64,000 nucleotides of DNA. Source: a virus. Of the stretch, positions 75 through 55,615 are shown in pieces (position 1 is the first letter of the stretch; each line of letters starts with the position of its first letter). Location: the IMG/VR virus record IMGVR_UViG_3300043137_000327, positions 1-64,000 of that record; one strand, given 5' to 3'. The notes beneath the pieces are model-generated. The model had not been told where the DNA came from. It was given only the letters and a program-made list of their open reading frames with translations, and made no database searches. The position numbers were made by a program, and so were the translations under genes.

Positions 75-165
75 CAAATAAGGTAATAGTTCCCAGAGTT
101 GATGTGGCCACATCCGGACTCAAAAAAAGTAAAGTTACAGATGGATGCGTAACGCCTTATTAATT

Positions 166-236: not shown

Positions 237-241
237 CTAAT

Positions 242-313
242 AGTTCTATGGTGTAACGGATAGCACCCTTCACTACGGATGAAGAAGTTTGGGTTCGAAT
301 CCTAATAGAACTA
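242..313 (+). tRNA. tRNA-Arg (anticodon ACG)
   Basis: Acceptor agttcta/tagaact, anticodon stem cttca/tgaag with loop ctACGga, T-arm ttggg-TTCGAAT-cctaa. Confidence 0.55.
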
Positions 314-319
314 CATAAT

Positions 320-389
320 GGTCAGTTTGGTCGTGGAGGCCGGTGGGTCTGCAAAACTTACGGAGTTGGTTCGATTCCAACATTGACCT
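320..389 (+). tRNA. tRNA-Cys (anticodon GCA)
   Basis: Acceptor ggtcagt/attgacc (one GU), anticodon stem tgggt/actta (two GU, or 6-bp extended) with loop ctGCAaa, T-arm gttgg-TTCGATT-ccaac. D-arm is short/atypical. Confidence 0.45.
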
Positions 390-456
390 CAACCGGTGAA
401 GGATATTGGATATATCGCCCGACGTGGAGTTGGGAAAGTGGTTCGATTCCACAAAC

Positions 457-526
457 TGCATGGCTTAGTGGAAAAGAGTTATCTCTCATAAGGATGACCA
501 AATGAGTTCGAACCTCATACATGCAA
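457..526 (+). tRNA. tRNA-Met/Ile2 (anticodon CAT). D-arm atypical and boundaries uncertain
   Basis: Anticodon stem tatct/ggatg with loop ctCATaa, T-arm atgag-TTCGAAC-ctcat, acceptor tgcatgg/acatgca (6 of 7 pairs). The D-region is shorter than canonical. Confidence 0.4.
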
Positions 527-594
527 CAATGTATATTATACTATACAAAAACCTGGTATTTAGGGGTAAATGTATAATATATTATACGAAATAT

Positions 595-668
595 GGTGTT
601 TATAGTGTTAATGGTTAGCACGTCAGTTTGTGGTACTGATAGTATGGGTTCGAATCCCATTAATCACC
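595..668 (+). tRNA. tRNA-His (anticodon GTG) with G-1
   Basis: Anticodon stem tcagt/actga (perfect) with loop ttGTGgt, T-arm atggg-TTCGAAT-cccat, acceptor gtgttta/taatcac, plus an extra 5' G (595) pairing with discriminator C668 as expected for tRNA-His. Confidence 0.6.
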
Positions 669-673
669 CCAAT

Positions 674-759
674 AGAGAGTTACCCAAGTTGGTGAAGGGG
701 CCTGTTTGCTAAACAGGTAGGATGTTAAAGTCGCAAGGGTTCGAGCCCCTTACTCTCTA
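674..759 (+). tRNA. tRNA-Ser (anticodon GCT), class II
   Basis: Acceptor agagagt/actctct (perfect), anticodon stem cctgt/acagg with loop ttGCTaa, long variable arm (about 19 nt), T-arm aaggg-TTCGAGC-ccctt. Confidence 0.6.
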
Positions 760-768
760 CTTAAAATT

Positions 769-843
769 GCCCGTATGGCGGAATTGGAATACGCAGTGGC
801 TTTAGACACCACACAATTGAAGGTTCGAGTCCTTCTATGGGTA
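769..843 (+). tRNA. tRNA with anticodon TAG (Leu-decoding) but a class-I short variable arm. The anticodon loop could also be read as 9 nt
   Basis: Acceptor gcccgta/tatgggt (all paired, 2 GU), D-stem gcg/cgc, anticodon stem gtggc/accac (C-A mismatch at loop end) with loop ttTAGac, 6-nt variable region, T-arm gaagg-TTCGAGT-ccttc, discriminator A. Confidence 0.4.
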
Positions 844-1310
844 CAAAATTTATAACTATGGTTTACAAAAAACTAACAGGTGAAAGTGTAGAATTGGAAG
901 AATATATTACAAATTATATAGATATGTATGATGATGTTGATATACTTATTGGATGTGATTCACAAAATCGTGCTGATAAAACGACATACGCCGTAGTAGT
1001 TGCTTTGTATCATAGAGGTAAAGGAGCACACGTATTATTCAGAAGATGGCAAACTAAAAAAGAATGGACTCGTTCTACTCGTTTGTTAAATGAAGTATGG
1101 TACGCTATTGAAACGGCAGAGATGATGAAGGAAGCAGGTATTCCGAAACCTCGTTGGATTGATGTGGATTTGAACCCAGACCCTAGATATAAATCTAACG
1201 AAGTATTCAGACAGGCGGTTGGTATGGTTGAAGGTATGGGATATGAAGTTAGATATAAAACATTAGGTCCAATCGCAACATATGCGGCTGACCATTTAGT
1301 AAAAATGTAA
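837..1310 (+). CDS. hypothetical protein, possibly RNase H-like (YkuK/DUF458-like)
   Basis: 157-aa ORF. The segment ILIGCDSQNRADKTTYAVVVALYHRGKGAHVLF resembles the GTDSQ core of the DUF458 RNase H-fold family. The start overlaps the 3' end of the preceding tRNA by a few nt. Confidence 0.35.
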   Translation: MGTKFITMVYKKLTGESVELEEYITNYIDMYDDVDILIGCDSQNRADKTTYAVVVALYHRGKGAHVLFRRWQTKKEWTRSTRLLNEVWYAIETAEMMKEAGIPKPRWIDVDLNPDPRYKSNEVFRQAVGMVEGMGYEVRYKTLGPIATYAADHLVKM

Positions 1311-1387
1311 AAAAATATTAGGAAATTTGAAAAACTTTCTGTATATTTGTATAAGTTCTTTGATAGATAGGTATTTAAAAAGCAAAC

Positions 1388-1461
1388 GCTCCGTTCGTCT
1401 AATTGGTTAGGACACTCCCCTTTCACGGGAGAGCTTACGGGTTCGAGCCCCGTACGGAGTA
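1388..1461 (+). tRNA. tRNA-Glu (anticodon TTC)
   Basis: Acceptor gctccgt/acggagt (G1-U72), D-stem gtct/ggac, anticodon stem ctccc/gggag with loop ctTTCac, T-arm acggg-TTCGAGC-cccgt. Confidence 0.55.
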
Positions 1462-1559
1462 CAAAAGATTAATGTAAATCGCCTATGTGGGTGAAACTAA
1501 TTCCTCGTTTGGGGAAAAGAAGATGTGATTTCTTTAATAGGTGTAGTTAATCTTTAATT

Positions 1560-1632
1560 GCCTCCGTAGCTCATTTGGTAGAGCAGCTGATTTGTAATCA
1601 GCAGGTGGTTGGTTCGAGCCCGACCGGAGGCT
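1560..1632 (+). tRNA. tRNA-Thr (anticodon TGT)
   Basis: Acceptor gcctccg/cggaggc (perfect), D-arm tagctcatttggtagagca, anticodon stem gctga/tcagc with loop ttTGTaa, T-arm gttgg-TTCGAGC-ccgac. Confidence 0.65.
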
Positions 1633-1636
1633 CAAT

Positions 1637-1710
1637 GGGATGTTAGTAGAGTTGGTTACAATGTCGCCCTGTCACGGCGAAGGTCACGGGTTCGAGTCCC
1701 GTACATCCCG
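1637..1710 (+). tRNA. tRNA-Asp (anticodon GTC)
   Basis: Acceptor gggatgt/acatccc (perfect), anticodon stem tcgcc/ggcga with loop ctGTCac, T-arm acggg-TTCGAGT-cccgt, discriminator G. Confidence 0.6.
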
Positions 1711-1715
1711 CATAT

Positions 1716-1789
<74 letters not shown>

Positions 1790-1807
1790 CTAACAAAAGA
1801 AAAGCGT

Positions 1808-2245
1808 ATGAGCATATTAATCAGAACTTTATTTTGTATCTTTGTAATGATGCCAGCAAGTGTTAGTAAATTTGATGGTAGAAAGTTTGAGGTTGAAAAG
1901 GAAAAAGAGGAAGTTGTTGTAAAGAAACAAAATGCACTTATAGTAACGGCAACAACCTATACTGTAAGTGAATCAGAAACCGATAGTTCACCAACCATAA
2001 CGGCTAGTGGATTTAGGTTAAGTAAAACAAATCCTAAAAAGCACAGGGTAATAGCTGTGAGTAGAGATTTAAAAAAGAAACTTAGATTTGGAGATAAGGT
2101 AAGAGTTACCGGAATTGGAAAACTAAGTGGTGTATATGTAGTTAGAGATTTGATGCATAGTAGGTGGAGAAAGAAAATTGATATTTTAATCAATCCGAAA
2201 GATAAACAAACTAAGTTTCATAAAGTTAAACTTTACATATTATAA
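1808..2245 (+). CDS. 3D-domain protein (MltA-like cell-wall-binding/hydrolase-associated domain) with N-terminal signal/TM segment
   Basis: 145-aa ORF with a hydrophobic N-terminus. ATTYTVSESETDSSPTITASGFRL...HRVIAVSRDL...FGDKVRV...GVYVVRDLMHSRWRKKIDIL matches the 3D (Asp-rich) domain pattern ATAYT..G.TASG...IAVDP...G.Y.A.DTG..IDI. Confidence 0.5.
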   Translation: MSILIRTLFCIFVMMPASVSKFDGRKFEVEKEKEEVVVKKQNALIVTATTYTVSESETDSSPTITASGFRLSKTNPKKHRVIAVSRDLKKKLRFGDKVRVTGIGKLSGVYVVRDLMHSRWRKKIDILINPKDKQTKFHKVKLYIL

Positions 2246-2248
2246 GTT

Positions 2249-2333
2249 GCCTCGGTGGTGTAATGGTAGCCACGAAGGACTTAAAATCCTTTGAACCGAA
2301 AGGTTCGTGCCAGTTCGAGTCTGGCCCGAGGTA
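2249..2333 (+). tRNA. tRNA-Leu (anticodon TAA), class II
   Basis: Acceptor gcctcgg/ccgaggt, anticodon stem aagga/tcctt with loop ctTAAaa, long variable arm tgaaccgaaaggttcg, T-arm gccag-TTCGAGT-ctggc, discriminator A. Confidence 0.6.
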
Positions 2334-2445
2334 CAATGTAATGATTCGAAAGAATAGCGGAACAGATGCTAAGAATGAAATGGAAACTTTTGAAACTCGT
2401 ACAAAGGAGTGGATTCGAAACAAACCGCACAGACATTACATTAAT

Positions 2446-2519
2446 GGGGATATAGCTCAGTTGGCTAGAGCATCTGCCTTGCACGTAGAGGGTCGTGGGT
2501 TCGAATCCCTCTATCTCCA
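2446..2519 (+). tRNA. tRNA-Ala (anticodon TGC)
   Basis: Acceptor ggggata/tatctcc with a G3-U70 pair (the Ala identity element), D-arm tagctcagttggctagagc, anticodon stem tctgc/gtaga with loop ctTGCac, T-arm gtggg-TTCGAAT-ccctc. Confidence 0.65.
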
Positions 2520-2571
2520 CTATCGTTGAAATAAACGATATTAGATTTTATCGTTAGATTAAACGATAATT

Positions 2572-2648
2572 GGACTTGTAGCTCAGTCGGTTAGAGCGCC
2601 GCACTCATAATGCGTAGGTCATAGGTTCGAGCCCTATCTGGTCCACCA
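2572..2648 (+). tRNA. tRNA-Met/Ile2 (anticodon CAT) with encoded 3' CCA
   Basis: Acceptor ggacttg/ctggtcc (one T-T mismatch), D-arm tagctcagtcggttagagc, anticodon stem ccgca/tgcgt with loop ctCATaa, T-arm atagg-TTCGAGC-cctat, discriminator A followed by CCA. Confidence 0.55.
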
Positions 2649-2706
2649 TAGTTAGAATAGTTTATCTTTTTTAAGTATTCTAATATTTATATAAAAGAAA
2701 AAAACT

Positions 2707-3108
2707 ATGAAAGGTAATTGTATAAATTGTGACAAAGAGTTTGATTATATGCCATCTCAAAAAAATGGTAAGTATTGTTCAAACAAATGTCAGGGTGAGT
2801 ACTCTGTAAAACAAAGATTTGTAAAGGGTAGTGTTTGGCATCATAATATGGCAATCTATCTTAAACGAATTAGAGGAAATAAATGTGAGGATTGTGGAAT
2901 CACAGAGTGGTTGGGACATGAAATTAGTATGCATGTAGACCATATTGATGGTGATAGAACAAATAATACTTATGATAATTTAAGAATACTTTGTCCTAAT
3001 TGCCATTCACAAACTCCAACATTCGCTAGTAGAAATGTTTCAGCCGAAGGTAAAAAGAAAATGGCTGAATCCGCTAGAAAGAATGGTAGGGGTCACAAGC
3101 GAAAGTAG
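2707..3108 (+). CDS. HNH homing-type endonuclease
   Basis: 133-aa ORF. Cys-rich N-terminus (CINCDKEF...CSNKC) and the HNH core HVDHIDGDRTNNTYDNLRILCPNCHS. Embedded in the tRNA array. The stop overlaps the 5' end of tRNA-Gly. Confidence 0.8.
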   Translation: MKGNCINCDKEFDYMPSQKNGKYCSNKCQGEYSVKQRFVKGSVWHHNMAIYLKRIRGNKCEDCGITEWLGHEISMHVDHIDGDRTNNTYDNLRILCPNCHSQTPTFASRNVSAEGKKKMAESARKNGRGHKRK

Positions 3109-3171
3109 CTCATTTGGTAGAGCATCACCTTGCCAAGGTGAGGGTAGCCGGTTCGAGCCCGGTCTTTCGCT
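3099..3171 (+). tRNA. tRNA-Gly (anticodon GCC)
   Basis: Acceptor gcgaaag/ctttcgc (perfect), D-arm tagctcatttggtagagc, anticodon stem tcacc/ggtga with loop ttGCCaa, T-arm gccgg-TTCGAGC-ccggt. Confidence 0.65.
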
Positions 3172-3227
3172 CAAATGGGCTTTAGTGGGAAGCCGCAAGA
3201 ACGATAGATGTTGTTCATCCACTAAAT

Positions 3228-3299
3228 GCGAGTATAGCACAATGGTTAGTGTTCCGGCCTTCCAAGTCGGAGATTTCGGTTCGAGTCCGAATACTCGCT
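3228..3299 (+). tRNA. tRNA-Gly (anticodon TCC)
   Basis: Acceptor gcgagta/tactcgc (perfect), D-stem gcac/gtgt, anticodon stem ccggc/gtcgg with loop ctTCCaa, T-arm ttcgg-TTCGAGT-ccgaa. Confidence 0.65.
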
Positions 3300-3380
3300 C
3301 AACTCAAGTACCCATACCGCCAACGATGGGCTAAGTTAGATACAATTCCGTATTGCGGGGAGTAGAATGCTTGAGAATTT

Positions 3381-3451
3381 TGCCTGATGGTGTAGCGGTA
3401 GCACAACTGTTTTTGGTGCAGTTAGGGTAGGTTCGAATCCTGCTCGGGTAA
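3381..3451 (+). tRNA. tRNA-Gln (anticodon TTG)
   Basis: Acceptor tgcctga/tcgggta (U1-A72 as in bacterial tRNA-Gln, two GU), D-stem gtgt/gcac, anticodon stem actgt/gcagt with loop ttTTGgt, T-arm gtagg-TTCGAAT-cctgc. Confidence 0.5.
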
Positions 3452-3461
3452 CAACAAAAAA

Positions 3462-4747: not shown

Positions 4748-5401
4748 ATGAAAATAGTATTAGAAAAAGGACAGAAGTTATGGTTTACAAGTGATACACA
4801 CTACAACCATGCTAATATTTGTTCCGCTACAACAAAGTGGACAGACCCGGTGACTTGTAGAGAATTCAAAACATTAGAACATATGAACGCTCACCTCGTT
4901 GGTAACATCAACGAAATGGTCGGACAGGATGATATTCTATTTCACTTAGGTGATTGGAGTTTTGGTGGATTTGAAAGTATCGAACAATTCAGAAATCAAA
5001 TTGTTTGTAAAAACATTCACATCATTACAGGCAACCACGACCATCACATTGAAAACAACAGAGAAGGTTGTCAATCGCTTTTTGCTTCGGTAAACAAATA
5101 CCTAAACTTAAATGTGAAATTTCCAAATGGAAGTGGTGGATATGATGATATACGATTTGCTCTAATGCACTTTCCAATAGCAAGTTGGGATAATATGGCG
5201 AGAGGCGCTATCCATTTGCATGGGCACGTTCACTTTGAACCTAGGTTACGAATTGGTGCTGGAAAAATGATGGATGTGGGTGTGGATGGAAACGGATTGT
5301 ACCCAATTCAAATGAGTGAAGTATTGAGATTAATGAGAAACCAACCAATCAAAAGTATGTTCATATTTGACCATCACGAGATTGTGGAGAATTATAAGTA
5401 A
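4748..5401 (+). CDS. calcineurin-like metallophosphoesterase
   Basis: 217-aa ORF with the motifs FTSDTHYNH, LFHLGDWSFGG, ITGNHDHH and HLHGHVHF (metallophosphoesterase signature blocks). Confidence 0.7.
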   Translation: MKIVLEKGQKLWFTSDTHYNHANICSATTKWTDPVTCREFKTLEHMNAHLVGNINEMVGQDDILFHLGDWSFGGFESIEQFRNQIVCKNIHIITGNHDHHIENNREGCQSLFASVNKYLNLNVKFPNGSGGYDDIRFALMHFPIASWDNMARGAIHLHGHVHFEPRLRIGAGKMMDVGVDGNGLYPIQMSEVLRLMRNQPIKSMFIFDHHEIVENYK

Positions 5402-5402
5402 A

Positions 5403-5585
5403 ATGAAAAAGTGGATTTGTAAAATAATAGGTCACAAATACTCATATAATTTTGGGTGGATGCCCAATAAGTGTATATGTAATAGGTGTGGTATGAAATG
5501 GAAAAGCATTAGTAACCCATATTACATACCGGGTGAATCAAATCCATTAATAACCGATATGCATATTTGGATAGAAGATAAATAA
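5403..5585 (+). CDS. small Cys-rich (putative zinc-ribbon) protein
   Basis: 60-aa ORF MKKWICKIIGHKY...CICNRCGMKW starting at the ATG just after the previous stop. The ORF-track start at 5367 overlaps the upstream gene. Confidence 0.35.
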   Translation: MKKWICKIIGHKYSYNFGWMPNKCICNRCGMKWKSISNPYYIPGESNPLITDMHIWIEDK

Positions 5586-5591
5586 TAAATT

Positions 5592-6008
5592 ATGATACCA
5601 AAAATATTAACATTAGTAAGAGGGTTGCCAGGAAGTGGTAAAACGACATTCGCAAATACTATCACAAATGAATTTTCAGTATGTGAAGCTGATAAGTTTT
5701 TCTATGATAAGGAGGGAAACTATAACTTTGATAGTAATAAATTAACTGCTGCACATAAATGGTGTAGAGATGAGGTAGAAATGCGAATGAAAGATAATCA
5801 ACTTAATGAACAATTCTATCCGCATATTGTAGTATCCAATACATTCACCAAACGATGGGAAATGGATACATATTTTGGATTAGCAAAGCAATATGGATAT
5901 AGAGTTCATTCAATCATTGTTGAAAATAGACACGATGGTGATAATGTACATAATGTGCCAGAAGAAAAAATAAAACAAATGGCTAATAGATTTGAAATTC
6001 AATTATAA
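5592..6008 (+). CDS. pnk: polynucleotide 5'-kinase (T4 Pnk kinase-domain-like P-loop kinase)
   Basis: 138-aa ORF. Walker A [35 protein letters not shown] parallels T4 Pnkp [39 protein letters not shown] parallels T4 VPIDVLRSMYKSM. Confidence 0.75.
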   Translation: [138 protein letters not shown]

Positions 6009-6013
6009 AAGAA

Positions 6014-7159
6014 ATGGAAAATAATAATTCAGTTTGCTATGTAGCAACAATTAATGAAATCAAACCAATTGAAGGAGCTGATAACATTGAGTTAGCAGTA
6101 GTTGGTGGTTGGAATTGTATCACTAAAAAAGGTGAGCAAAAAATAGGTGATGAAGTTATCATCGCTACAACCGATGCCGTAATTCCGGAATCATTATCGG
6201 ATGAGATGGGAGTTACTAGCTATCTTCGTAAAGGTGGTAGAGTTAGGACTGTGAAATTAAGAGGTGTATATTCAGAATGTTTAATCATTCCAAATAAATT
6301 CTTACATGGTAGAAGTACTATCGGAGATTGGGATTTGAAAGAAGGTAGTGATTGTATGCATATTTTTGGTATTGTTAAATTTGAACCACCCGTAAAAATG
6401 GTTCAATTGGCAAGTGGTAAGAAAATCAGATACCAAGATAATCCAAACTTTCACGTATATTATAAGTTTCCAAACTTAAAGAATGTACCTGGAATGTTTA
6501 CTGAAGAAGATACGGTTGAAATCACTCGTAAAATTCACGGAACAAATGCCAGATATGGTATTGTTAGGAAACTTAAATTATCAGTTTGGCATAATATTAA
6601 GAAGTTCTTTGGATTTGGTAACAAATGGGATGAGTTCGAATTCGTAGTTGGTTCGCATAATGTTGAGAAAGGTTCAGATTCTAATGGATTCTACGATACA
6701 AACGTATGGTATGAAATCGATAAGAAATATGGTATCAAACAAAAGTTATGGGATTATGTTAAGAATGAAGATATGGATGTAGTTATCGGAGATGGTATCA
6801 CTTTATATGGTGAGATTTACGGAGCTGGAATCCAAAAGGGATACGATTATGGGTTGAGTGAGATTGAGTTCGTAGGATTCGATGTAAAGGAGGATGGTGA
6901 GTATTTAGACCCAATCAACTCTAAACTTTTAATCAAAGATATTTTGGAATTACCATATGTAGAGATTTTACACTTTGGTAGGTGGTCACAAGAAGTACAA
7001 GATAAGTATGTATTCAATAATTTCATTGAAGGTACTAAAGTGCCGGAGGAGGGTATTGTAATCAAACACCAATCTAAAGGTAGAGAGAAGATAGCAAAGG
7101 TAATAAATCCTGATTATTTAATTTTCGCTGAAAAACACAATGTTGGCGATTCTCATTAA
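6014..7159 (+). CDS. rnl: RNA ligase (T4 Rnl2-like nucleotidyltransferase) with N-terminal tRNA-binding OB-fold domain
   Basis: 381-aa ORF. N-terminus VATINEIKPIEGADNIELAVVGGWNCITKKGEQKIGDEVII resembles the Myf/EMAP-type tRNA-binding domain. Ligase motif I RKIHGTN (K-x-H-G), motif IIIa YGEIYGAGIQKG (T4 Rnl2 FGEFAGPGIQKN), motif IV PEEGIVIKH. Confidence 0.75.
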   Translation: MENNNSVCYVATINEIKPIEGADNIELAVVGGWNCITKKGEQKIGDEVIIATTDAVIPESLSDEMGVTSYLRKGGRVRTVKLRGVYSECLIIPNKFLHGRSTIGDWDLKEGSDCMHIFGIVKFEPPVKMVQLASGKKIRYQDNPNFHVYYKFPNLKNVPGMFTEEDTVEITRKIHGTNARYGIVRKLKLSVWHNIKKFFGFGNKWDEFEFVVGSHNVEKGSDSNGFYDTNVWYEIDKKYGIKQKLWDYVKNEDMDVVIGDGITLYGEIYGAGIQKGYDYGLSEIEFVGFDVKEDGEYLDPINSKLLIKDILELPYVEILHFGRWSQEVQDKYVFNNFIEGTKVPEEGIVIKHQSKGREKIAKVINPDYLIFAEKHNVGDSH

Positions 7160-8142: not shown

Positions 8143-8228
8143 GGAAGGATGGCAGAGTTGGTCTATCGCGCTTGACTTGAAATCAAGTGTACTGAAAGGT
8201 ACCGTGGGTTCGAATCCTACTCCTTCCG
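8143..8228 (+). tRNA. tRNA-Ser (anticodon TGA), class II
   Basis: Acceptor ggaagga/tccttcc (perfect), anticodon stem cttga/tcaag with loop ctTGAaa, long variable arm, T-arm gtggg-TTCGAAT-cctac, discriminator G. Confidence 0.6.
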
Positions 8229-8434
8229 CAAAAATAAATTGTAGTGTGTTGGAAAATGATTTGTACGTGTGCAAATCTGGCAGACAAGCCCTCCTGTCTC
8301 GGGGGTGATGAGTACGAAATAGGTTAGTAATATGGGGTAGACCACCAAGCCGGCCGGCGGATGTTACTAACTGAATCGCATCGTGGATGGTTCGAATCCT
8401 CCCATTACAGCTAAATCTTTATCTTATCATCATT

Positions 8435-9612: not shown

Positions 9613-9637
9613 TATTTCATAACTAATTGATAATCAA

Positions 9638-9664
9638 AGACTTACATATGTAGGTCTTTTTTTA
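9638..9664 (+). terminator. Rho-independent terminator (agacttac-atat-gtaggtct + T7)
   Basis: 8-bp stem (one GU), a 4-nt loop, then TTTTTTT at 9657-9663. Confidence 0.7.
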
Positions 9665-9712
9665 TGCCTAATGTGTTGATAATCAATACATTAAAAAATA
9701 TTTTAATAAATG

Positions 9713-11953: not shown

Positions 11954-11999
11954 CAATGGGTTCATAACGTGTTGATAATCAATAAGTTATGACCCATTG
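11954..11999 (+). repeat. long imperfect hairpin (caatgggttcataac / gttatgacccattg) enclosing the GTGTTGATAATCAAT motif
   Basis: About 14-bp inverted repeat directly after the CobT-like stop. There is no T-run, so it is probably a structured or regulatory element rather than a classical terminator. Confidence 0.45.
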
Positions 12000-12156
12000 A
12001 TTATCAATGAGTTACACATCTAAACTATACTAATATGAAGAATGGAATACTGACCTTATTGGGTAATTATAATCGATTCCTGCCGGGTTTATGTGAGAAT
12101 TTGACCCCTTATTTATGGTATATTTCTGAAATATTTTTAAAATAATTGATAATATA

Positions 12157-22345: not shown

Positions 22346-23980
<1,635 letters not shown>

Positions 23981-31001: not shown

Positions 31002-31393
31002 ATAGAGAGGAGCACTTAATGAAAACATTTCCTTTAGAAGATGGGACTACCTATATTCAGAACTTAGATAAAAGTTTCAGATATTGCCAAAGCCAGATAG
31101 AAGATAATGGTAAGTGTAAAGAGCAATGTGAACATTGTAAAGAATATTATGCACCATTGGAAAACGAACCGAAAGGGGCGGGGGCTGGGGGAGAAGTCGA
31201 AAAGGGAAATTTTATTGATAGTGCGTCTTTGGAGTTGGGAGAGTCTTTGGAGCTAAGAGAGTCCTTAGAGTTGGGAGAGTCCGTTGAGCAGAGTGATGTG
31301 GATAGTAGTGGGGATAAATTGAATAAGATATACGAGAAGTTGGATAGGGATTATATGTACAATTGGATTAGAAATCATAAAAATCGAAAATGA
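30998..31393 (+). CDS. hypothetical protein with SLELGE/SLELRE tandem repeats
   Basis: 131-aa ORF. The coding sequence contains four tandem 18-bp units (31228-31300). Confidence 0.4.
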   Translation: MNREEHLMKTFPLEDGTTYIQNLDKSFRYCQSQIEDNGKCKEQCEHCKEYYAPLENEPKGAGAGGEVEKGNFIDSASLELGESLELRESLELGESVEQSDVDSSGDKLNKIYEKLDRDYMYNWIRNHKNRK

Positions 31394-31429: not shown

Positions 31430-31567
31430 ATGAAAACGAATTTCAAAGAAAAATTAGGTTATTGGGCAGAAACGTTACTTATGTTCGGTGGATTGATGAT
31501 AGGCATCGCAATGGTATGTGGTGGGTTCTATATGATATATACCATTTTCAAAGCCATATTCAACTAA
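31430..31567 (+). CDS. small membrane protein (45 aa)
   Basis: Unannotated ORF MKTNFKEKLGYWAETLLMFGGLMIGIAMVCGGFYMIYTIFKAIFN. Confidence 0.3.
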   Translation: MKTNFKEKLGYWAETLLMFGGLMIGIAMVCGGFYMIYTIFKAIFN

Positions 31568-31585
31568 TCAAATACAACAAACGAA

Positions 31586-31816
31586 ATGGATAAGGTAGTA
31601 CAAAGGATATTGGAATTGAAAAAAGAAATCCAAACTCCTAACATCAAATTGGCAATTCAAAAGTTGCAACAATCCCTATGTGAATCAAATACAAAGATTA
31701 GCGCATCGGAAAAGAAGGATAAAAATAATTTAGCTAATATTGACATTGAGAATGATATCAGTAAAGTAAAAGATGAAGATATAGAAGCATTCCTTTTTAA
31801 TAGGTATAATAGATAA
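31586..31816 (+). CDS. hypothetical protein
   Basis: 76-aa ORF. Confidence 0.35.
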   Translation: MDKVVQRILELKKEIQTPNIKLAIQKLQQSLCESNTKISASEKKDKNNLANIDIENDISKVKDEDIEAFLFNRYNR

Positions 31817-31820
31817 GAGT

Positions 31821-32180
31821 ATGAATAACACAGCCATAGTATGGATGATAGTAACGCTAGTATGGATAGTATCCCTATATAAGATAGTAGGTATCCATAA
31901 GATAGTAAACGTATTAACTATGTTTAAAACAAAAGCGTATTGGAATCCCTTATACAATAAGATAGAGGCGATAAGCTGGATTAGTAAGATAGGAATCATA
32001 GTACCGGGCTTAGTATGGGGAAAAGAAATTTGGTACTTACACATCGTAACCCTGATATCGAGCTCCTTACTGATATGGGTAAAGGCTGAGAAAGGATTAC
32101 CTACGTTAATAGTATTCAATACGATATGGATAGGGATAAGCAGTTGGGTATTGGTTAAGAATATCTTATTACATTTATAA
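31821..32180 (+). CDS. hypothetical integral membrane protein
   Basis: 119-aa ORF with four hydrophobic helices (W-rich). Confidence 0.45.
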   Translation: MNNTAIVWMIVTLVWIVSLYKIVGIHKIVNVLTMFKTKAYWNPLYNKIEAISWISKIGIIVPGLVWGKEIWYLHIVTLISSSLLIWVKAEKGLPTLIVFNTIWIGISSWVLVKNILLHL

Positions 32181-32558
32181 GGAGTATAAACAATAATAGA
32201 TAAGGGATAGTGAGTAGAAGATTAGGGAATAGAAGGGATTGGATTGAATTGGGTTTAAGCGTATTAATGATGGGTAGTGTAGTATTTGTATTCCTTAATG
32301 GATTGGTACACATAATCAATTGGATATGGGGTATCTAAGAGCATAGCAGTGTATATCAGCTGATGCAGTATCAAAATATAATCATAAGAGTAAATTAGTG
32401 GTAAAAAGTGGGGATTTGTGTTAAAGTGTGTGAGGGAATCCAAAGATGTCAAAATATATATGTACATACTAACACACTACAATAAAATCATAACACTATA
32501 TTAGAGTGTTAAAAAGAATCAGTATATCCCACCCTTTTGCGTTCTTAGCAAAAAAAAA

Positions 32559-32757
32559 TTATCCACAGCCATTTTCACATTTGTTAGTAACTTTATTTGG
32601 TTACAAAAGTAAATCGGGTATACAAATGTACCGCTCCGAAAGCGTGGAGGCGTCTACATTCTGCTTCGGTCGTGCGCCGCACAGACACCGCACTGCAAAG
32701 GATTGCATCGGAATACTGAATAAAAATCAAAATTGTTAATAAAAAAAGTTATCCACA
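32559..32757 (+). promoter_or_regulatory. pair of perfect DnaA-box 9-mers (TTATCCACA at 32559-32567 and 32749-32757) bracketing a GC-rich structured island. Candidate replication origin or ncRNA locus
   Basis: Two identical 9/9 matches to the DnaA-box consensus, with similar flanks (AAAAAATTATCCACAGCC and AAAAAGTTATCCACACCCC), in the same orientation, inside an 830-bp non-coding stretch. Confidence 0.35.
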
Positions 32758-32761
32758 CCCC

Positions 32762-32792
32762 TTGGATATATGGACTTTTTTTCGTATCTTTA
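32762..32792 (+). promoter_or_regulatory. Bacteroidetes-type promoter with conserved +1 block (TCGTATCTTTATAGGGTGG)
   Basis: TTGG 32762-32765, TATCTTTA 32785-32792. The same TCGTATCTTTnnAGGGTGG block recurs at 49340-49360. It leads into about 220 nt with no ORF. Confidence 0.4.
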
Positions 32793-33012
32793 TAGGGTGG
32801 AAGGGCGGGAGTAGAGAAGCTGAGAGCTCTGCTAACTGATTGATTCTCAATGGCTCTGGCTAACTCGTTGGTTTCCAATAAAAAATATTTCACATTTCCA
32901 AAAAATAAATGATAAATAATTAGGCTATTACGGCAGAATTGTCTATCTTTATTATATAAAGGGAGAGAGAGTAAAAGACCTCCCATCACTTAAAATCTAA
33001 AATATAAACGAT

Positions 33013-33348
33013 ATGAGTTACACTTCAATGAATTACGAAAGGTTTGGTTTGTACAAAAACATTCCAGCTACTAAACAGCCTGTTAAGAAGGCAGGTTTAC
33101 CTACTATTACTTTTACTGATATGTTTGGTAGAAACTTCTTTTTTCCTTATCGTACTAAAAAACAACGTTCCGAAATTTCAGACATTTTGAGGTTGTTAAA
33201 GGCTGAGAATAATCAATTGAATCGTATTCTTTCCGACTATTCAGTTAAGATGGGTAAGTATGTGAATGAGAGCAAGTTGAGAGCTGAATTAAAAACAGCG
33301 TTTGGTTTTTCAAAATCGAATATCGACTCAATCTTATCTATCCACTAA
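33013..33348 (+). CDS. hypothetical protein
   Basis: 111-aa ORF. Confidence 0.45.
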   Translation: MSYTSMNYERFGLYKNIPATKQPVKKAGLPTITFTDMFGRNFFFPYRTKKQRSEISDILRLLKAENNQLNRILSDYSVKMGKYVNESKLRAELKTAFGFSKSNIDSILSIH

Positions 33349-33362
33349 TCAAAACTAATACT

Positions 33363-33563
33363 ATGAAAAATTATCAAATCATTCTTACGGCTTTTGCTTC
33401 GTTCTTTGTGGCCATTAACATCTTAAATGGTACGGCCCAACAATATGTACATTTCGCAGGTGAACTTAATGAATTGGGATGTGCAGTTATCGCTTTAACG
33501 ATGGGTGTGTTATCTACCTATTGTATTGATTGGAAATCATTTTTTAACTTTTTAAATAAATAA
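33363..33563 (+). CDS. hypothetical membrane protein
   Basis: 66-aa ORF with two TM helices. Confidence 0.35.
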   Translation: MKNYQIILTAFASFFVAINILNGTAQQYVHFAGELNELGCAVIALTMGVLSTYCIDWKSFFNFLNK

Positions 33564-34445: not shown

Positions 34446-34496
34446 TCCATTGATTATCAACACGTTAGAAAAACTTTAAAAATAATCACTCAAATG

Positions 34497-36073: not shown

Positions 36074-36144
36074 GCGGTGGAAGTGTAATGGTTGCACACC
36101 TGGCGTCCAGCTAGGAGGAGGTGGTTCGAATCCACACCGCCGCT
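36074..36144 (+). tRNA. atypical tRNA-like gene (TCC/Gly-like anticodon loop cgTCCag with G instead of U at position 33). Possible pseudo-tRNA
   Basis: Acceptor gcggtgg/ccgccgc, D-stem gtgt/gcac, anticodon stem cctgg/ctagg, T-arm ggtgg-TTCGAAT-ccaca. Flanked by GC hairpin 36052-36069 upstream and terminator 36215-36244 downstream. Confidence 0.4.
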
Positions 36145-36214
36145 CAACGCAATTCGGTATATTTGGTTATTCTCTGATTGATTGATTTACATTTACACAA
36201 AGCGTTACATTAGA

Positions 36215-36244
36215 AGATGGTCACACCGAATGACCATCTTTTTT
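36215..36244 (+). terminator. Rho-independent terminator (agatggtca / tgaccatct + T-run)
   Basis: 9-bp perfect stem, 7-nt loop, TTTTTT. Confidence 0.7.
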
Positions 36245-36264
36245 ATTTTAAAACTGACAAACAT

Positions 36265-36669
36265 ATGACATATACATTGGTTAGCAAGATACCAACCCGT
36301 AAAGAGGTGCTTAGAATAGGTAGGGCAGCTGAACGATGGTGTAGGGATAATATGGGTATCAATAAGAGAAAGAAGTTTGACCCAACTATAACATATTACA
36401 AATCACTACCTACTGATAGGTGTATGGGTGAGTACAGGCATTGGGATAACGAAATCATTGTGTATTACAATAACACTCCCAATATCAAAGCACTTATACA
36501 AACAATCATACACGAATGGCAACATCAGTTACAGCCAATGAGTAAGTATGATGCTATGTTAGATGAGGTGGGATACGAAGAACATCCCTTAGAGATAGCT
36601 GCGGAGGCGGCAGAGAGAAAGCATTATAAACGCCTATGGCAGGCAATCAAACCTAAATTAAATAAATAA
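36265..36669 (+). CDS. putative zinc metallopeptidase (HExxH)
   Basis: ORF trimmed to the ATG at 36265 because 36217 lies in the terminator stem. Contains IIHEWQHQLQ (HExxH). Confidence 0.4.
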   Translation: MTYTLVSKIPTRKEVLRIGRAAERWCRDNMGINKRKKFDPTITYYKSLPTDRCMGEYRHWDNEIIVYYNNTPNIKALIQTIIHEWQHQLQPMSKYDAMLDEVGYEEHPLEIAAEAAERKHYKRLWQAIKPKLNK

Positions 36670-36882: not shown

Positions 36883-37183
36883 TACAATTGTAAATAACAT
36901 TTGTAAACAAAACGATTCGGACACTAATAAAAATAAAATCAGCAAGTATATGAATAATACCCATAGTATAGTAAAGGCATATAGTAGTATAGAGAACATA
37001 CATAGTATAGAGGAACAAAGGAATAAGACAATGGCAGACCCTAAGTATATACAATGGTGTAAAGATATGAAAGTATCCCAACTCTATACGAGTAGAGAAC
37101 TTATACACAATGCTAATAGGCTGATGAAGCAGTACACCCATAAGATAGGAGTAGAATAGTATAGATAGTAAATAGTAAAGGAA

Positions 37184-37217: not shown

Positions 37218-37286
37218 ATGCTCACTCGTTAGACCCCCCCCCCAACTGAATATCACGTAAAGCCAAAAAGCAGAGTTGTGCTCACG

Positions 37287-39506: not shown

Positions 39507-39591
39507 ACAACTATCAATAGAGATAAGAAAAATTTCTTTTTGACGGAGCGACGTTCTCCCCCAACCCCCTTCCCCCTAAAATTAATATGAT

Positions 39592-40262: not shown

Positions 40263-40565
40263 ATGAATGTTAGTGTTTTGAATAAGTTAGAAAAAGGTTG
40301 GATATCATTGGATTGGTCTATATACTTAGTCAGAATGAATCTAACTTCAAAGCAATTATCTGAATTAGTTGATAAGTTGGATAATTGGAAATCTAATAAA
40401 TCTTGCAAAAGTATAATATTAGTAAAGTATAAAGTATTACCGGCGTATATTATATTAAATCGAATCGACTTTAAAAAATTAGGGAAGTATTTGATGGATA
40501 CAATGGTAAAGAGAGAAATGTATGAAGAATGCGCTCGTTTACAATTAATGATGGATAAATTATGA
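40263..40565 (+). CDS. hypothetical protein
   Basis: 100-aa ORF. Confidence 0.4.
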   Translation: MNVSVLNKLEKGWISLDWSIYLVRMNLTSKQLSELVDKLDNWKSNKSCKSIILVKYKVLPAYIILNRIDFKKLGKYLMDTMVKREMYEECARLQLMMDKL

Positions 40566-41803
40566 AAAATGTTGTTATAGTTGGCGGAGGTACAGCCGGT
40601 TGGTTAACCGCCTTAGTAGTAAATAAATTTTGGAAAGATACTAATGTTACTCTAATAGAGAGTTCTAAGATTGGTGTATTGGGAGCGGGTGAGGGTGGTA
40701 CTCCCAACTTTGGAAGAATGTTGAGTCTATTGGATATAAATCATAAAGAATTTTTTGAAAAAACAAATTCAACTGTAAAAGGTGGAATACATTTATTTAA
40801 TTGGACGGGTAATAATGAATTATCCAAACATTTATTTGTTGGAGAAGAGCCAAATAGATTTACCAAAAACTATGCATATCATTTTGATGCAAGGTTGGTA
40901 GCTGAATACTTTAAGAACGTTTCTATTAGTAGAGGAGTTAATTGGATTGATGGTGAAGTTGATACAATTAACAATATTGAAGATACAATTAAATCCATTT
41001 CGTTAAAAGATAATACTGTAATTGATTTGGATTTTATATTTGATTGTAGCGGATTCAGACGTATATTAATCGATGGTGTACATTCCGATGAATGGGTTGG
41101 ATATGAAAAATATCTAATGATGAATAAAGCATTCACATTCTTTTTACCACAATTCGATAAAAATATTGGCTATTCAAACACATATACTCATATGGTTTCG
41201 ATGAATTGTGGTTGGATGTTCCAAATACCATTACAACATAGATGGGGATGTGGATATGTTCATAATGATAATTATATCACAATAGATGAGGCTAAGAAAG
41301 AAGTGGAAAATTATTTAGGATATGAGGTAACTATACAAAAAACATTTGATTTTAAACCTGGTACCCACAAAAGAAGTTGGATTGGTAATTCAATATCAAT
41401 TGGATTATCTTATGGATTTATAGAACCATTAGAAGCAACTTCATTAATGTCTACCATTATGCAACTAAAAAGATTGATTGATATAGATTTTAATGAAGAA
41501 GCTAAAGATAGGTACAATGATTGGTGTTATCAAATAAATGAACAAAATTTAAACTTTATAAGATACCACTATCTATGCGAAAGAGATGATACTGATTTTT
41601 GGAAAGATTGTACATCCATGCCGTTGCCTGATAAATTGTATAAAATCTTAGATAAGAATAATTCGTTAATTCCAAAAAGTGATTCACAATTGTTGGATAT
41701 GTTGGAGTTGAAGGAATCTTCTGTCAATGAATTAACATTTTGTGTAAATAACTATTCTACAATTTTTATGAAAAATAAAAAACATAAAAACAAACTAATA
41801 TAA
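40562..41803 (+). CDS. flavin-dependent halogenase (tryptophan-halogenase family)
   Basis: 413-aa ORF. FAD-binding VIVGGGTAGWLTA and halogenase-type CGWMFQIPL (the GWxWxIP motif). Ends with KLI. Confidence 0.55.
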   Translation: MKNVVIVGGGTAGWLTALVVNKFWKDTNVTLIESSKIGVLGAGEGGTPNFGRMLSLLDINHKEFFEKTNSTVKGGIHLFNWTGNNELSKHLFVGEEPNRFTKNYAYHFDARLVAEYFKNVSISRGVNWIDGEVDTINNIEDTIKSISLKDNTVIDLDFIFDCSGFRRILIDGVHSDEWVGYEKYLMMNKAFTFFLPQFDKNIGYSNTYTHMVSMNCGWMFQIPLQHRWGCGYVHNDNYITIDEAKKEVENYLGYEVTIQKTFDFKPGTHKRSWIGNSISIGLSYGFIEPLEATSLMSTIMQLKRLIDIDFNEEAKDRYNDWCYQINEQNLNFIRYHYLCERDDTDFWKDCTSMPLPDKLYKILDKNNSLIPKSDSQLLDMLELKESSVNELTFCVNNYSTIFMKNKKHKNKLI

Positions 41804-49328: not shown

Positions 49329-49384
49329 TTCGATTTTTTATCGTATCTTTGAAGGGTGGTAGCGTGTAGTTATCACCTTTTTTT
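49321..49384 (+). promoter_or_regulatory. promoter (TTGG...TATCTTTG) immediately followed by a hairpin + T-run. Either the terminator for the Hsp20 gene or an attenuator
   Basis: TTGG 49321-49324, TATCTTTG 49344-49351, conserved AGGGTGG at +1, then stem agggtgg/tcacctt and TTTTTTT (49353-49384). Confidence 0.4.
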
Positions 49385-49404
49385 ATTTAAAAATACTTAT
49401 TAGT

Positions 49405-53920: not shown

Positions 53921-55615
53921 ATGATATCATTAGGTATTTCCGCATTTTACCACGATTCTGCGGTATGTTTATTTGAAGATGGGAAAGTTATATCGGCAAT
54001 AGAAGAAGAGAAGTTATCAGGCATAAAGCATGATAACTCTTTTCCATTACAAGCGATAAAATGGGTTTTGAGTAACTCTAATAAAACTATATCAGATGTA
54101 GATACTATATGCTGGTATGAAGAACCAAGTTTAAAATACGATAGAGTAAAGAATACTTTAGGTAAGTATTGGTGGAAGAATAGAAAGACTTGGAAAAAAT
54201 TCAAAGAAGAATTCGAATCAACCGAAGGTAATTTAAAAGATTATTTATCTAAGACAATAAATTTTAATGGTAATATACAATATGTAAAACATCATTATTC
54301 TCATTTAGCTTTTTCATATTACACTTCTCCATTTCACGACGCAGTTGGTATATCAATAGATGGTGTGGGTGAATGGGATACTGCATTAGCAGTTAGATGT
54401 AAAGATAATACATTTGAAGAAATAAATTCAATGAAATTTCCAAACTCATTGGGATTAGTATATTCTACAATTACTGCGTATTTAGGATTCAAACCAAACA
54501 ATGGTGAGTACAAAGTAATGGGGTTAGCACCATATGGCGACCCATCAAGATATAAACATATTTTTGATAAAATATTTAGATTCAATAAAAAAGGAGTAAT
54601 AGAAATAAATCAAAAGTATTTTACTTGGCAATATTCTAATACCGATATGTACACATATGATTTAGTAAAATTAATTGGTATAGAACCAAGAGAAGCTGAA
54701 TCAAATATAGAACAGCATCATATGGATTTAGCCGCATCTTTACAAAAGTGGTATGAAAGTTGTTTTTATTTCTTTGTTAATAATTGTATGCAAAATGCCG
54801 ACACTGCTAATTTAGTATTGGGTGGTGGTTCTGCTTATAATGGTACTGCTAATGGTAAAATAAAAAAACATACAGCCGTTACGGAGTTATGGATTCCATT
54901 TGCACCATCTGATGCCGGTTCGGCAATTGGAGCATGCTTATATCATTGGCATAACATATTGGGTAACCCTAAAGTAATAGGAGGTGATAATATTTCTCCA
55001 TATTTAGGACCTGAATGGGATAATAAAGAATTGATGGAAATCATATTAAAAGAACGAAAGAGTAATGTTACTAAATATGATAGTATTAAAATGCTTTGTA
55101 AGGATGTAGCAAACCTTATAAACGAAGGTAATATTATTGGTTGGTTTCAGGGCAGAACTGAATTTGGTGCAAGAGCATTGGGTAATCGTTCTATATTAGG
55201 TAATCCACATCTTTCAGATATTAGAGATAGAATTAATAAGGTTGTCAAAAAAAGAGAAATGTTTAGACCATTTGCTCCATCGGTAACATTTGAAGATTAT
55301 GATAAGTATTTTTCATCGGAAGGTGAAGTACCATATATGAATCAAGTTGTTAAAGTGACCGAATATAAATCAATTCCATCGGTAACTCACGTTGATAAAT
55401 CAGCAAGAATACAAACCGTTAGAAAAGAGATGAATCCTTTATATTACGACTTATTAAAAGAATTTGAAAAAGTGAGTGGTACACCAATACTTTTAAATAC
55501 TTCATTTAATTTAAGAGGACACACAATGACAAATGACCCTAAAAAAGCAATTTGGACTTTTTATAATTGTGACATGGATTATTTGGTATTGGGTAATTAT
55601 TTGATAAGTAAATAA
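53921..55615 (+). CDS. carbamoyltransferase (NodU/CmcH/TobZ family)
   Basis: 564-aa ORF. The N-terminus MISLGISAFYHDSAVCLFEDGKVISAIEEEKLSGIKHD closely parallels the family N-terminus (ILGI..HDSAA.L..DG.IVAA.EEER..R.KHD). The length is typical of the family. Confidence 0.75.
   Translation: MISLGISAFYHDSAVCLFEDGKVISAIEEEKLSGIKHDNSFPLQAIKWVLSNSNKTISDVDTICWYEEPSLKYDRVKNTLGKYWWKNRKTWKKFKEEFESTEGNLKDYLSKTINFNGNIQYVKHHYSHLAFSYYTSPFHDAVGISIDGVGEWDTALAVRCKDNTFEEINSMKFPNSLGLVYSTITAYLGFKPNNGEYKVMGLAPYGDPSRYKHIFDKIFRFNKKGVIEINQKYFTWQYSNTDMYTYDLVKLIGIEPREAESNIEQHHMDLAASLQKWYESCFYFFVNNCMQNADTANLVLGGGSAYNGTANGKIKKHTAVTELWIPFAPSDAGSAIGACLYHWHNILGNPKVIGGDNISPYLGPEWDNKELMEIILKERKSNVTKYDSIKMLCKDVANLINEGNIIGWFQGRTEFGARALGNRSILGNPHLSDIRDRINKVVKKREMFRPFAPSVTFEDYDKYFSSEGEVPYMNQVVKVTEYKSIPSVTHVDKSARIQTVRKEMNPLYYDLLKEFEKVSGTPILLNTSFNLRGHTMTNDPKKAIWTFYNCDMDYLVLGNYLISK

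Follow-up and report, generated by a model that had tools for sequence, protein, structure and literature searches.

The stretch of DNA considered here, denoted as the window, comprises 64,000 nucleotides (positions 1 to 64,000) of the IMG/VR virus record IMGVR_UViG_3300043137_000327 and is a 64-kb piece of an AT-rich phage genome (~32% GC). Its intergenic gap 32181-33012 harbors two 9-mers, TTATCCACA, of the DnaA-box type that stand in fixed register with promoter elements. The gap measures 832 bp and is the largest of the window apart from an 836-bp gap in a transfer RNA (tRNA) array; after a doubtful 42-codon GTG open reading frame (ORF), its remaining 674 bp (32339-33012) are referred to as the hub. 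We read this region as a multi-operator promoter hub, in which DnaA-type boxes would gate promoters of the host type, an interpretation for and against which the scales are about even. In this way, the phage would probably tie part of its transcription, and possibly its replication, to the replication initiator of its host. The strongest clue to the working of the region is the register of the boxes with the promoter elements, which had escaped an earlier note on this DNA, made from the sequence alone.

DnaA-box-type 9-mers in register with promoter elements

Both copies of TTATCCACA (box 1 and box 2, Table 1) are present as the earlier note had described them, perfect, on the same strand, 190 nt apart, and preceded by near-identical A-rich left flanks (AAAAAATTATCCACAGCC and AAAAAGTTATCCACACCC). 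Five exact copies occur in the whole window, against 1.1 expected from shuffles. Their conservation was followed in a comparative set of ~80 related loci from lake metagenomes (cited by L numbers), in which the protein encoded directly after the hub, the anchor, ranges in identity from 100% down to 38%. The box-2 position, exactly 27 nt upstream of the -7 element, was read in 39 distinct contexts of relatives. It is occupied by TTATCCACA in 31 contexts, by TTTTCCACA and TTATCAACA in two each, and by TTATTCACA in one; the 9-mer is absent from the last three (L031, L032, L043), where the ordinary TAAATTTGGCAATATGG block is found instead. The sequence TTWTNCACA is fitted by 34 of the 39, and most of the variation falls on positions 3 and 5, the two that DnaA tolerates. 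Wherever both are present in relatives, TTATCCACA lies exactly 40 nt before TTTATAGGG. According to an information profile of 43 distinct cassettes, the conservation of the box almost equals that of the -7 element, and the spacer between them varies freely.

In those of the listed contexts in which box 1 is present, its start lies exactly 31 nt downstream of a conserved CCACCC. The box reads TTATCCACA in close relatives of the window and TTTTCCACA in a second large group; three lineages show the variants TTATCAACA or TTTTCAACA, and others have no box. Relaxed boxes reach 2.08 per kb in the hubs vs 0.085 per kb in the flanks (45 loci), a 24-fold enrichment, and their number per hub varies from zero to five, with two in the window, four in L076 (two on each strand), and five in L080. 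The latter (IMGVR_UViG_3300021962_000330, positions 812-1139) represents a different phage lineage with a different downstream gene. Its hub shows five same-strand boxes in 320 bp, TTTTACACA, TTTTCCACA, and then three TTATCCACA, among them head-to-tail boxes at 12- and 21-nt spacing, and precedes an HExxH-motif gene that resembles, by eye, the window ORF 36217-36669. Judged by their position-locked conservation across dozens of relatives, the 9-mers are functional, conserved sites of the DnaA-box type and not products of chance; the possibility raised in the earlier note, that they are chance occurrences absent from related genomes, is refuted.

The promoter following box 2, denoted as PB, had been noticed before together with its AGGGTGG start block; both proved to be real and conserved in relatives, and transcription is predicted to start near G32797. 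PB belongs to a recurrent promoter type with at least nine copies in the window, all intergenic and on the + strand. The consensus of this type, TTTGGCAATAyCGAwTwwwTTTCGTATATTTA, consists of TTTG, a 20-nt spacer, and TAnnTTT(A/G), and is also seen as TTTGGCAATAyCG..TTTCGTATATTTA. Eight further copies are located 14-73 nt before genes, and PB is exceptional in lying 230 nt from the next gene. In Flavobacterium, the -7 box of sigma-A promoters is TAnnTTTG at -12 to -5 (PMC9723704). From its elements, PB is a promoter of the Bacteroidota sigma-A type, the class used throughout the window. It alone among the copies lacks the TTTGGCAATA -33 block and shows TTATCCACAccccTTG there instead, and box 2 ends 4 nt before the TTG of its -33 element. 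In L004, L008, L019, L020, and L023, this residual TTG has changed to CTAG. Such a layout suggests a promoter that depends on a bound activator, and the loss of the -33 element in some lineages likewise speaks for activation more than for repression. L008, L018, L021, and L076 carry a duplication of the cassette of box, PB, and leader, which in L080 is set in another gene context.

Box 1 is found 20 nt after the TTTG of the conserved CCCACCCTTTTG, i.e. where the -7 element of a candidate ancestral promoter, P0, would be. At the same position, distant relatives show TTACAATTG, a near match to a -7 element that is part of the palindrome TTACAATTGTAAAC. The next -33-like TTTGG (32596-32600) follows 28 nt after box 1. 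An equal promoter register for both boxes was considered and rejected, as TAAATTTGG proved to be extended -33 context and not a -7 element. A third box, "ATCCACA", upstream of box 2 in relatives was dropped as well; it is really the spacer of a canonical promoter on the minus strand. This promoter occurs in 20 loci (L046, L048, L050, L051, L061, and others; e.g. near 2477 in L046) ~10 nt ahead of box 2 and is oriented towards the GC-rich island between the boxes. It is the only minus-strand promoter of the canonical type in the whole data set, is degenerate in the window, and places box 2 of those 20 loci between divergent -33 elements. It may drive an antisense or non-coding transcript, which keeps an RNA role open.

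Mechanistically, the hub would be composed of consecutive modules that bind proteins and are coupled to promoters of the host sigma-A type. Both TTATCCACA 9-mers would act as operators in fixed register with these promoters, box 2 at about -48 to -40 of PB, in the place of the TTTGGCAATA -33 block, and box 1 behind CCCACCCTTTTG, at the -7 position of the older promoter. A box-binding protein, most likely DnaA of the host, would decide whether RNA polymerase fires, either as a class-II-like activator where the -33 element has decayed to CTAG or as a repressor of the mioC/dnaAp2 kind. PB would then drive a long non-coding leader with G clusters, two dispersed palindromes, and a further promoter, PC, and subsequently the small early genes from 33013. 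The DnaA-box consensus is TTWTNCACA, and both TTATCCACA (R1/R4 type) and TTTTCCACA (mioC type) are efficient binders in E. coli (PMC5835720). In a Bacteroidetes genome, the predicted oriC is marked by E. coli-type DnaA boxes (PMC4755523). DnaA appears to be the best candidate for the reader because of the full 9-mer consensus, the kind of variation that is tolerated, the head-to-tail arrays of L080, and these oriC boxes of Bacteroidetes.

Several observations weigh against a gating of the hub by DnaA. A protein other than DnaA could read the 9-mer; a few lineages accept TTATCAACA, a departure from the DnaA consensus at position 6, and an inverted partner at box 2, TCCACAT-N9-ATGTGGA, is present in several (L004, L015, L016, L019), an arrangement that is more typical of a dimeric regulator than of monomeric DnaA. 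The distance between box and -33 element differs, with 4 nt for box 2 vs 28 nt for box 1, and a common mechanism is not assured. The relatives share a phylogeny, and the counts of contexts are not independent events. The phylum of the host is deduced only from the promoter type, the lack of Shine-Dalgarno (SD) motifs, and a 39%-identical Flavobacterium phage protein, and a Microcystis phage protein scores equal to the latter. Furthermore, both the boxes and PB are missing from the most distant relatives, in which the hub with its repeats and its island core is retained. Because these box-less relatives share the other features of the hub, it would be older than its boxes, which, from their distribution, are a later add-on, gained in one clade and then held fixed, and not the core function of the region.

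Architecture of the hub and its phage

The features of the hub are listed in Table 1. The absence of an ORF claimed in the earlier note was confirmed; 32339-33012 is non-coding, and the mechanical ORFs of the region all carry stop codons in relatives (tblastn for those at 32210-32989). The island as a small gene was rejected by hand translation, with the + frame from 32597 hit by TAG in L004, L005, and L011 and the - frame from 32708 ending after 14 codons in L003. Upstream, the small ORFs at 31430-32338 and their counterparts in relatives are purine-/GT-rich, have a membrane-like look, and are very different between relatives; by this appearance, the hub adjoins a hyperplastic region. In loci L003-L061, 18 contig ends fall within 600 nt upstream of the anchor gene vs 7 within 600 nt downstream, an excess that assembly breaks, caused by repeats or hypervariable cassettes, would explain no worse than genome termini.

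Table 1. Positions of the hub features, the first downstream gene, and the other promoter copies in the window
Feature	Position	Strand	Remarks
Phased direct repeats	32397..32432	+	AGTGG at 32397 and 32407, then degenerate TGTGT, AGTGT; ~10-nt spacing
AT-rich segment (ATGTCAAAATATATAT...)	32416..32511		Inside imperfect inverted repeat 32416-32434 / 32469-32487; GC 0.20-0.28
P0, candidate ancestral promoter	32528..32558	+	CCCACCC-TTTTG block and A-run; TTTG-N20 puts box 1 at the -7 position
Box 1, TTATCCACA	32559..32567	+	TTATCCACA or TTTTCCACA in the same register in relatives
Operator-like palindromes/half-sites	32574..32630	+	TTCACATTTGTTAG (32574-32587), TACAAATGTA (32621-32630); around TTTGG 32596-32600
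GC-rich island	32613..32715		Cores GAAAGCGTGGAGGCGTCTAC (32638-32657) and palindrome GTGCG-C-CGCAC + AGAC (32672-32686)
Box 2, TTATCCACA	32749..32757	+	~-48 to -40 of promoter PB
Promoter PB	32762..32792	+	-33 TTG 32762-32764, 20-nt spacer, -7 TATCTTTA 32785-32792
G-cluster leader GGGTGGAAGGGCGGGAG	32795..32811	+	Start of predicted PB transcript
Two dispersed palindromic elements, GCTAACTgaTTGATTCTCAAT and GCTAACTcgTTGGTTTCCAAT	32831..32879	+	Repeat family in the window
AT-rich spacer, then promoter PC	32880..32955	+	-33-like TTAG 32920-32923; -7 TATCTTTA 32944-32951; predicted to serve gene 33013
First gene after the hub (anchor)	33013..33348	+	111 aa; used for finding relatives
Promoter copies besides PB (32783)	3495, 9735, 12179, 14111, 24052, 34519, 35452, 49342	+	Upstream of genes

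The hub opens with AGTGG/AGTGT units, three to four of which recur at 10-11 nt spacing in the hubs of relatives, including the most distant ones, and form an inverted array in L080. They are followed by the AT-rich segment, whose layout is also found in the distant relatives L063-L075, and by the palindrome AACACTatattagAGTGTT (AACACT..AGTGTT) at 32491-32511. Together with the CCACCC block, the TGTAAC repeats, and the island core, the AGTGG repeats and the AT-rich segment are common to the most distant relatives. Following the -33-like TTTGG at 32596, palindromes of the type TTTACAwATGTAAC and TGTAAC half-sites are present in two to six copies in relatives, in ~10-nt phase; TACAnnTGTA occurs only three times in the window, always between genes. 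A tandem operator-like palindrome of the same family, TACAATTGTAAATAACATTTGTAAAC, lies in the intergenic stretch 36883-36910, which suggests that one regulator could control both this site and the hub. Further candidate protein-binding sequences of the hub are TTTACAAATGTAAA and TTGATAATCAA, beside GTGCGCCGCAC and the AGTGG repeats.

The switch to GC-rich DNA between the boxes, reported in the earlier note, was recovered, with a GC content of 0.50-0.63 at 32620-32719 vs 0.20-0.35 on both sides. The core GAAAGCGTGGAGGCGTCTAC is identical in L001. The second core, GTGCG-C-CGCAC with AGAC, is single-copy per genome and is kept in relatives whose anchor protein is only 38-53% identical, and other lineages have different GC-rich blocks in the place of the island, e.g. 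GCTCCAGGGCGAGATAAAA and CTGCGAAGCGC. The island is, by all appearances, a lineage-variable set of GC-rich candidate protein-binding sites (such as the palindrome GTGCGCCGCAC) and not a folded RNA.

Downstream of PB, the predicted transcript starts with a G-cluster motif that is unique in the window on either strand. Of 40 distinct contexts of relatives, 38 have the motif immediately behind a -7-like element and two are truncated by contig ends; on the non-template strand, the runs of G are conserved, in contrast to the bases that separate them. The G4Hunter score amounts to 1.36 for the 25-nt segment of the window and to 1.4-1.85 over the first 20 nt of the leaders of relatives. With this value, the window leader belongs to the top 0.2% without being the top score. 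The strongest tracts prone to G-quadruplexes or i-motifs (31171-31195, 39555-39579, 37223-37247) include GGGGCGGGGGCTGGGGG, inside an ORF, and CCCCCAACCCCCTTCCCCC, an intergenic tract before gene 39592, both of which outscore the hub leader. Another transcript starting like the hub leader, with AGGGTGGTAGCG, is encoded at 49329-49404; it continues with a GGTG..CACC hairpin and T7 and may be an attenuator before gene 49405.

The palindrome and the CTAACT repeats that had been noted in this stretch exist. However, the palindrome AGAGCTCT (32823-32830) is not conserved in relatives and was discarded as a feature, and the CTAACT units (32831-32851 and 32859-32879) are not hub-specific but belong to a dispersed intergenic element. 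The element, cATAACnnnTTGATAATCAAnnnGTTATg, occurs at 9620, 9676, 11965, 11997, 32833, 32861, and 34450, always between genes, and relatives carry one to more than eight of its units in leaders of 147-449 nt. In most cases, it is preceded by a stop codon or terminator and followed by the next promoter (9620-9700, 11965-12020, 32831-32879, 34450-34475); its hairpins are conserved in sequence without covarying, and it may serve as an operator for a protein or as a site of RNA processing. The PC block, GCAGAATTGTCTATmTTTAyTATrTAAA, is conserved in L001 and others, and a transcription start is predicted for PC near 32956. The AT-rich spacer together with PC has the layout of the cassettes upstream of genes 9772 and 34537, and the GC content in this stretch is as low as 0.125.

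The phage itself is a large, uncultured, lytic-looking myophage of the T4-like type from freshwater. All sizeable ORFs of the window lie on the + strand, with the exception of one overlapping mechanical ORF. Besides T4-type baseplate wedge genes and an RNA ligase, the window encodes GroEL, a tryptophan-halogenase-like protein, and a carbamoyltransferase as auxiliary functions (22349-23980, 40562-41803, 53921-55615), and it harbors 19 tRNA genes, 17 of them in an array at 1-3452, with a tRNA-Ser and a second tRNA-Gly(tcc) elsewhere (8143-8229 and 36074-36145). Among cultured phages, Flavobacterium phage vB_FspM_immuto and Microcystis phage Mel-JY01 come closest, with a baseplate wedge protein only ~39-40% identical. 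A blastn search of the region against 50,697 phage records gave zero matches. The anchor protein has 114 homologues in metagenomes and none among cultured phages; it matched no PHROG and gave only a sub-threshold match in Pfam, and its AlphaFold model (pLDDT 78) found no fold match in the PDB. A profile scan with the anchor retrieved 73 loci, mostly from samples whose record names look like freshwater lakes, to which loci from IMG/VR and long contigs of 216 kb and 245 kb (IMGVR_UViG_3300043410_001471) were added. The former (L076, contig Ga0480408_0000007) encodes a heme oxygenase and a ferredoxin-dependent bilin reductase at 5062-6187. A search for the host with the profile of the anchor against 185,579 species genomes found nothing. 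A host from the Bacteroidota is likely because of the sigma-A-type promoters and the near-absence of SD motifs; only 5 of 108 window genes show an SD-like motif, and start codons lie in A-rich contexts, as in Bacteroidota.

Replication origin, dimeric regulator, structured RNA, or chance

Among the alternatives to a DnaA-gated promoter hub, the most serious, though doubtful, one takes the hub as a replication origin of the phage, or as one of them, at which DnaA and PB transcription would open adjacent AT-rich DNA by R-loop formation or transcriptional activation. Such an origin would resemble ori-lambda, T4 oriF/oriG, or ColE1 and appears compatible with promoter gating, as lambda shows. The boxes form the only cluster of this kind in 64 kb, and their number rises to the five same-strand copies of L080. 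The phased 10-nt AGTGG and the TGTAAC repeats are iteron-like, AT-rich DNA is at hand at 32440-32520 and 32880-32930, and the G-cluster leader with its high G4Hunter rank is strictly coupled to the promoter. The size of the intergenic gap and the pile-up of contig ends in the hub point in the same direction, and lambda provides a precedent for DnaA-stimulated transcriptional activation (PMC3985674). The GC skew, proposed in the earlier note as a check of its origin candidate, argues against it: over the 64-kb window, the cumulative GC skew rises monotonically through the hub, and the GC3 skew is positive on both sides, declining from 0.29 before the hub to 0.20 after it, the opposite of an origin signature. 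Neither of them shows a switch of the origin type, and the genes all have one orientation.

The known unwinding module with DnaA-trios consists of a GC cluster, DnaA-trio repeats, and then an AT-rich DNA unwinding element. By reading, no run of DnaA-trio-like repeats was seen beside the boxes of the window or of relatives; the DNA after box 2, CCCCTTGGATATATGGAC(T)7, is promoter spacer, with no trinucleotide repeats visible. No initiator, helicase, or primase was recognized by PHROG and Pfam among ~40 neighboring proteins, where most small ORFs are unannotated. Moreover, distant relatives keep the hub without boxes, the AT-rich DNA at 32880-32930 belongs to a generic cassette that is also found before other promoters, and T4-like phages replicate largely by recombination. 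Taken on its own, origin function is a minority prospect, albeit a real one. Rather unlikely is also a wider version, in which the hub serves as an origin that is gated by DnaA and primed by transcription, or else as a sink for DnaA, and is common to a widespread clade of large Bacteroidota phages in freshwater. Host DnaA would here assemble on one to five boxes and license PB, and the G-cluster start of the transcript would form an R-loop or a G-quadruplex that opens AT-rich DNA for the phage replisome. If this version were true, a virulent T4-like phage would read the replication-initiation status of its host directly.

Alternatively, the 9-mer may be the operator of a dimeric regulator, encoded by the phage or another one of the host, with a likeness to DnaA boxes by coincidence or mimicry and no involvement of DnaA. 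This is unlikely, if readily conceivable. In addition to the inverted partner at box 2 mentioned above, L076 shows TCCACA-N6-TGTGGA at box 1; the tolerance for TTATCAACA and the emergence of the boxes within one clade of the phage family would also suit such a regulator, and other palindromic operators (TTACAnnTGTAA, GTGCGCCGCAC, TTGATnnnTCAA), which need binders other than DnaA, abound in the hub. By contrast, the fit to the DnaA consensus in most contexts extends over the full 9 nt, beyond a 6-nt half-site, the changes concentrate at the two positions that DnaA tolerates, and many lineages have no inverted partner (CCCCTTGACTTTATCAG). The head-to-tail arrays of L080, with their 12- and 21-nt spacing, are nearer to DnaA arrays than to dimer operators, and no candidate gene for a regulator or another DNA-binding protein was recognized nearby (PHROG/Pfam).

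The earlier note had also proposed a structured non-coding RNA between the boxes or a small RNA (sRNA) gene after PB. We consider it very improbable that the island, the PB transcript, or both are structured RNAs, acting as sRNA or in cis, each from its own promoter. Upstream promoters do exist, the minus-strand promoter described above fires into the island in 20 loci, the island cores and the leader are conserved, and loops of the GNRA-like and UUCG-like kind are visible in the window copy. Nevertheless, the Rfam and folding checks suggested in that note revealed neither a family nor an excess of folding in island or leader. At the gathering threshold, Rfam returned only tRNAs and nothing in the region, where ARAGORN found none either; at E <= 10, the scan of 32100-33100 gave three chance-level matches, none of them on the island. 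The 103-nt island folds with -28.4 kcal/mol (+) and -29.4 kcal/mol (-), which is no better than dinucleotide shuffles (z = -0.07 and -0.20, respectively), and 32540-32800 reaches z = -0.54. The nested complementarity described for the island thus exists in the form of small complementarities but does not exceed that of shuffled sequence. RNAalifold yielded -5.7 kcal/mol for eight homologous islands, with a positive covariation term (+0.42) and one compensatory pair, and only -1.0 kcal/mol for the PB leader, again with a positive covariation term, one compensatory pair, and no shared structure. The hairpins are conserved as sequence, do not covary, and form part of a dispersed DNA repeat, and the content of the island is swapped between lineages.

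No hairpin-plus-T-run was seen in 32340-33012, whereas canonical terminators are visible elsewhere in the window; a terminator scan of 31500-33500 gave one terminator-like site, at 31504. Because no such hairpin was seen in the region, PB transcripts most likely extend into gene 33013 and the small genes that follow. What had been called an ORF-less transcript is indeed free of ORFs, but it resolves into the G-cluster leader, two dispersed palindromes, and the second promoter PC, with neither a terminator nor a conserved fold. A pairing of its G-rich 5' end with CTCCCATCAC at 32975 was ruled out, as this segment is absent from L001. Finally, that two 9-mers fell by chance into a functionless AT-rich spacer is practically out of the question, even though the three further copies (4218, 12555, 30005) lie inside ORFs with no common flanking sequence and no sign of function, since ~0.014 copies are expected in 832 bp (scaled shuffle mean; two by chance ~1e-4, conservation not counted), the hubs are strongly enriched in boxes, and the sites are locked in position across dozens of diverged relatives while neighboring bases vary.

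Comparison with known systems

A handful of bacterial promoters are known to be under the control of DnaA boxes, which also assist the origins of lambda and of plasmids. To our knowledge, no case has been described in which they are wired into promoters of large virulent-type or T4-like phages, or in phages of Bacteroidota. In dozens of diverged phages, mainly from metagenomes of freshwater lakes, the hub keeps a perfect box at an exact distance from a host-type promoter. With DnaA as the reader, these phages would couple their early transcription and possibly also their replication to the replication-initiation state of the host, a testable link between host physiology and the outcome of infection in a phage-host group that is ecologically important and genetically understudied. 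If the binder is not DnaA, the hub would still be a well-defined multi-operator switch, though of ordinary interest. In either case, the analysis provides an uncultured family with a consensus for its promoters, a dispersed repeat between genes, and a catalogue of palindromes that look like operators.

In the plasmid P1 oriR, as in the hub, DnaA boxes flank a block of repeats. The hub differs from this and from oriC-type origins in having two boxes only and no adjacent rep gene, 19-bp iterons, DnaA-trio-like repeat, or skew switch. datA and DARS are clusters of closely spaced DnaA boxes (PMC5835720), which the box cluster of L080 recalls. With lambda, the hub shares the position of host DnaA boxes beside promoters in a phage control region; in lambda, DnaA boxes lie next to pO and the oop RNA promoter, and DnaA-stimulated transcription activates the origin (PMC3985674). 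Unlike in the hub, the lambda boxes are located downstream of pO, and the origin is contained in the O gene, adjacent to its initiator. For the hub, neither an initiator gene nor lambda-type ori iterons nor a skew signal was seen.

A strong promoter, a G-rich initial transcript, and then AT-rich DNA characterize T4 oriF/oriG, ColE1 RNA II, and mitochondrial CSB II. The hub compares to these transcript-primed origins in its promoter, the conserved G runs of the non-template strand, and the AT-rich DNA. However, its AT-rich stretch is a generic cassette, an R-loop or priming is only conjectured, and a similar AGGGTGGTAG start at the ordinary gene promoter 49342 counts against the likeness. T4-type phages also possess mobile promoter plus stem-loop units, PeSLs, in their hyperplastic regions. 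By analogy only, the hub recalls them with its repeated intergenic units of promoter and palindrome, whose number and arrangement differ from relative to relative. Its cassettes show no sequence relationship with the PeSLs of T4; they cluster in one hub and include a DnaA-type box as well as a G-cluster leader.

The proposed gating of a promoter through a DnaA box has its counterpart in E. coli, where mioC transcripts run into oriC. The mioC promoter is repressed via a DnaA box, and the quality of the box sets the degree of repression (PMC5835720). Like mioC and dnaA p2, the hub combines a consensus box (TTATCCACA or TTTTCCACA) with a promoter of the sigma-70 family. Unlike in these systems, its promoter is of the Bacteroidota -33/-7 type and lies in a lytic-looking phage, where the box replaces the -33 block.

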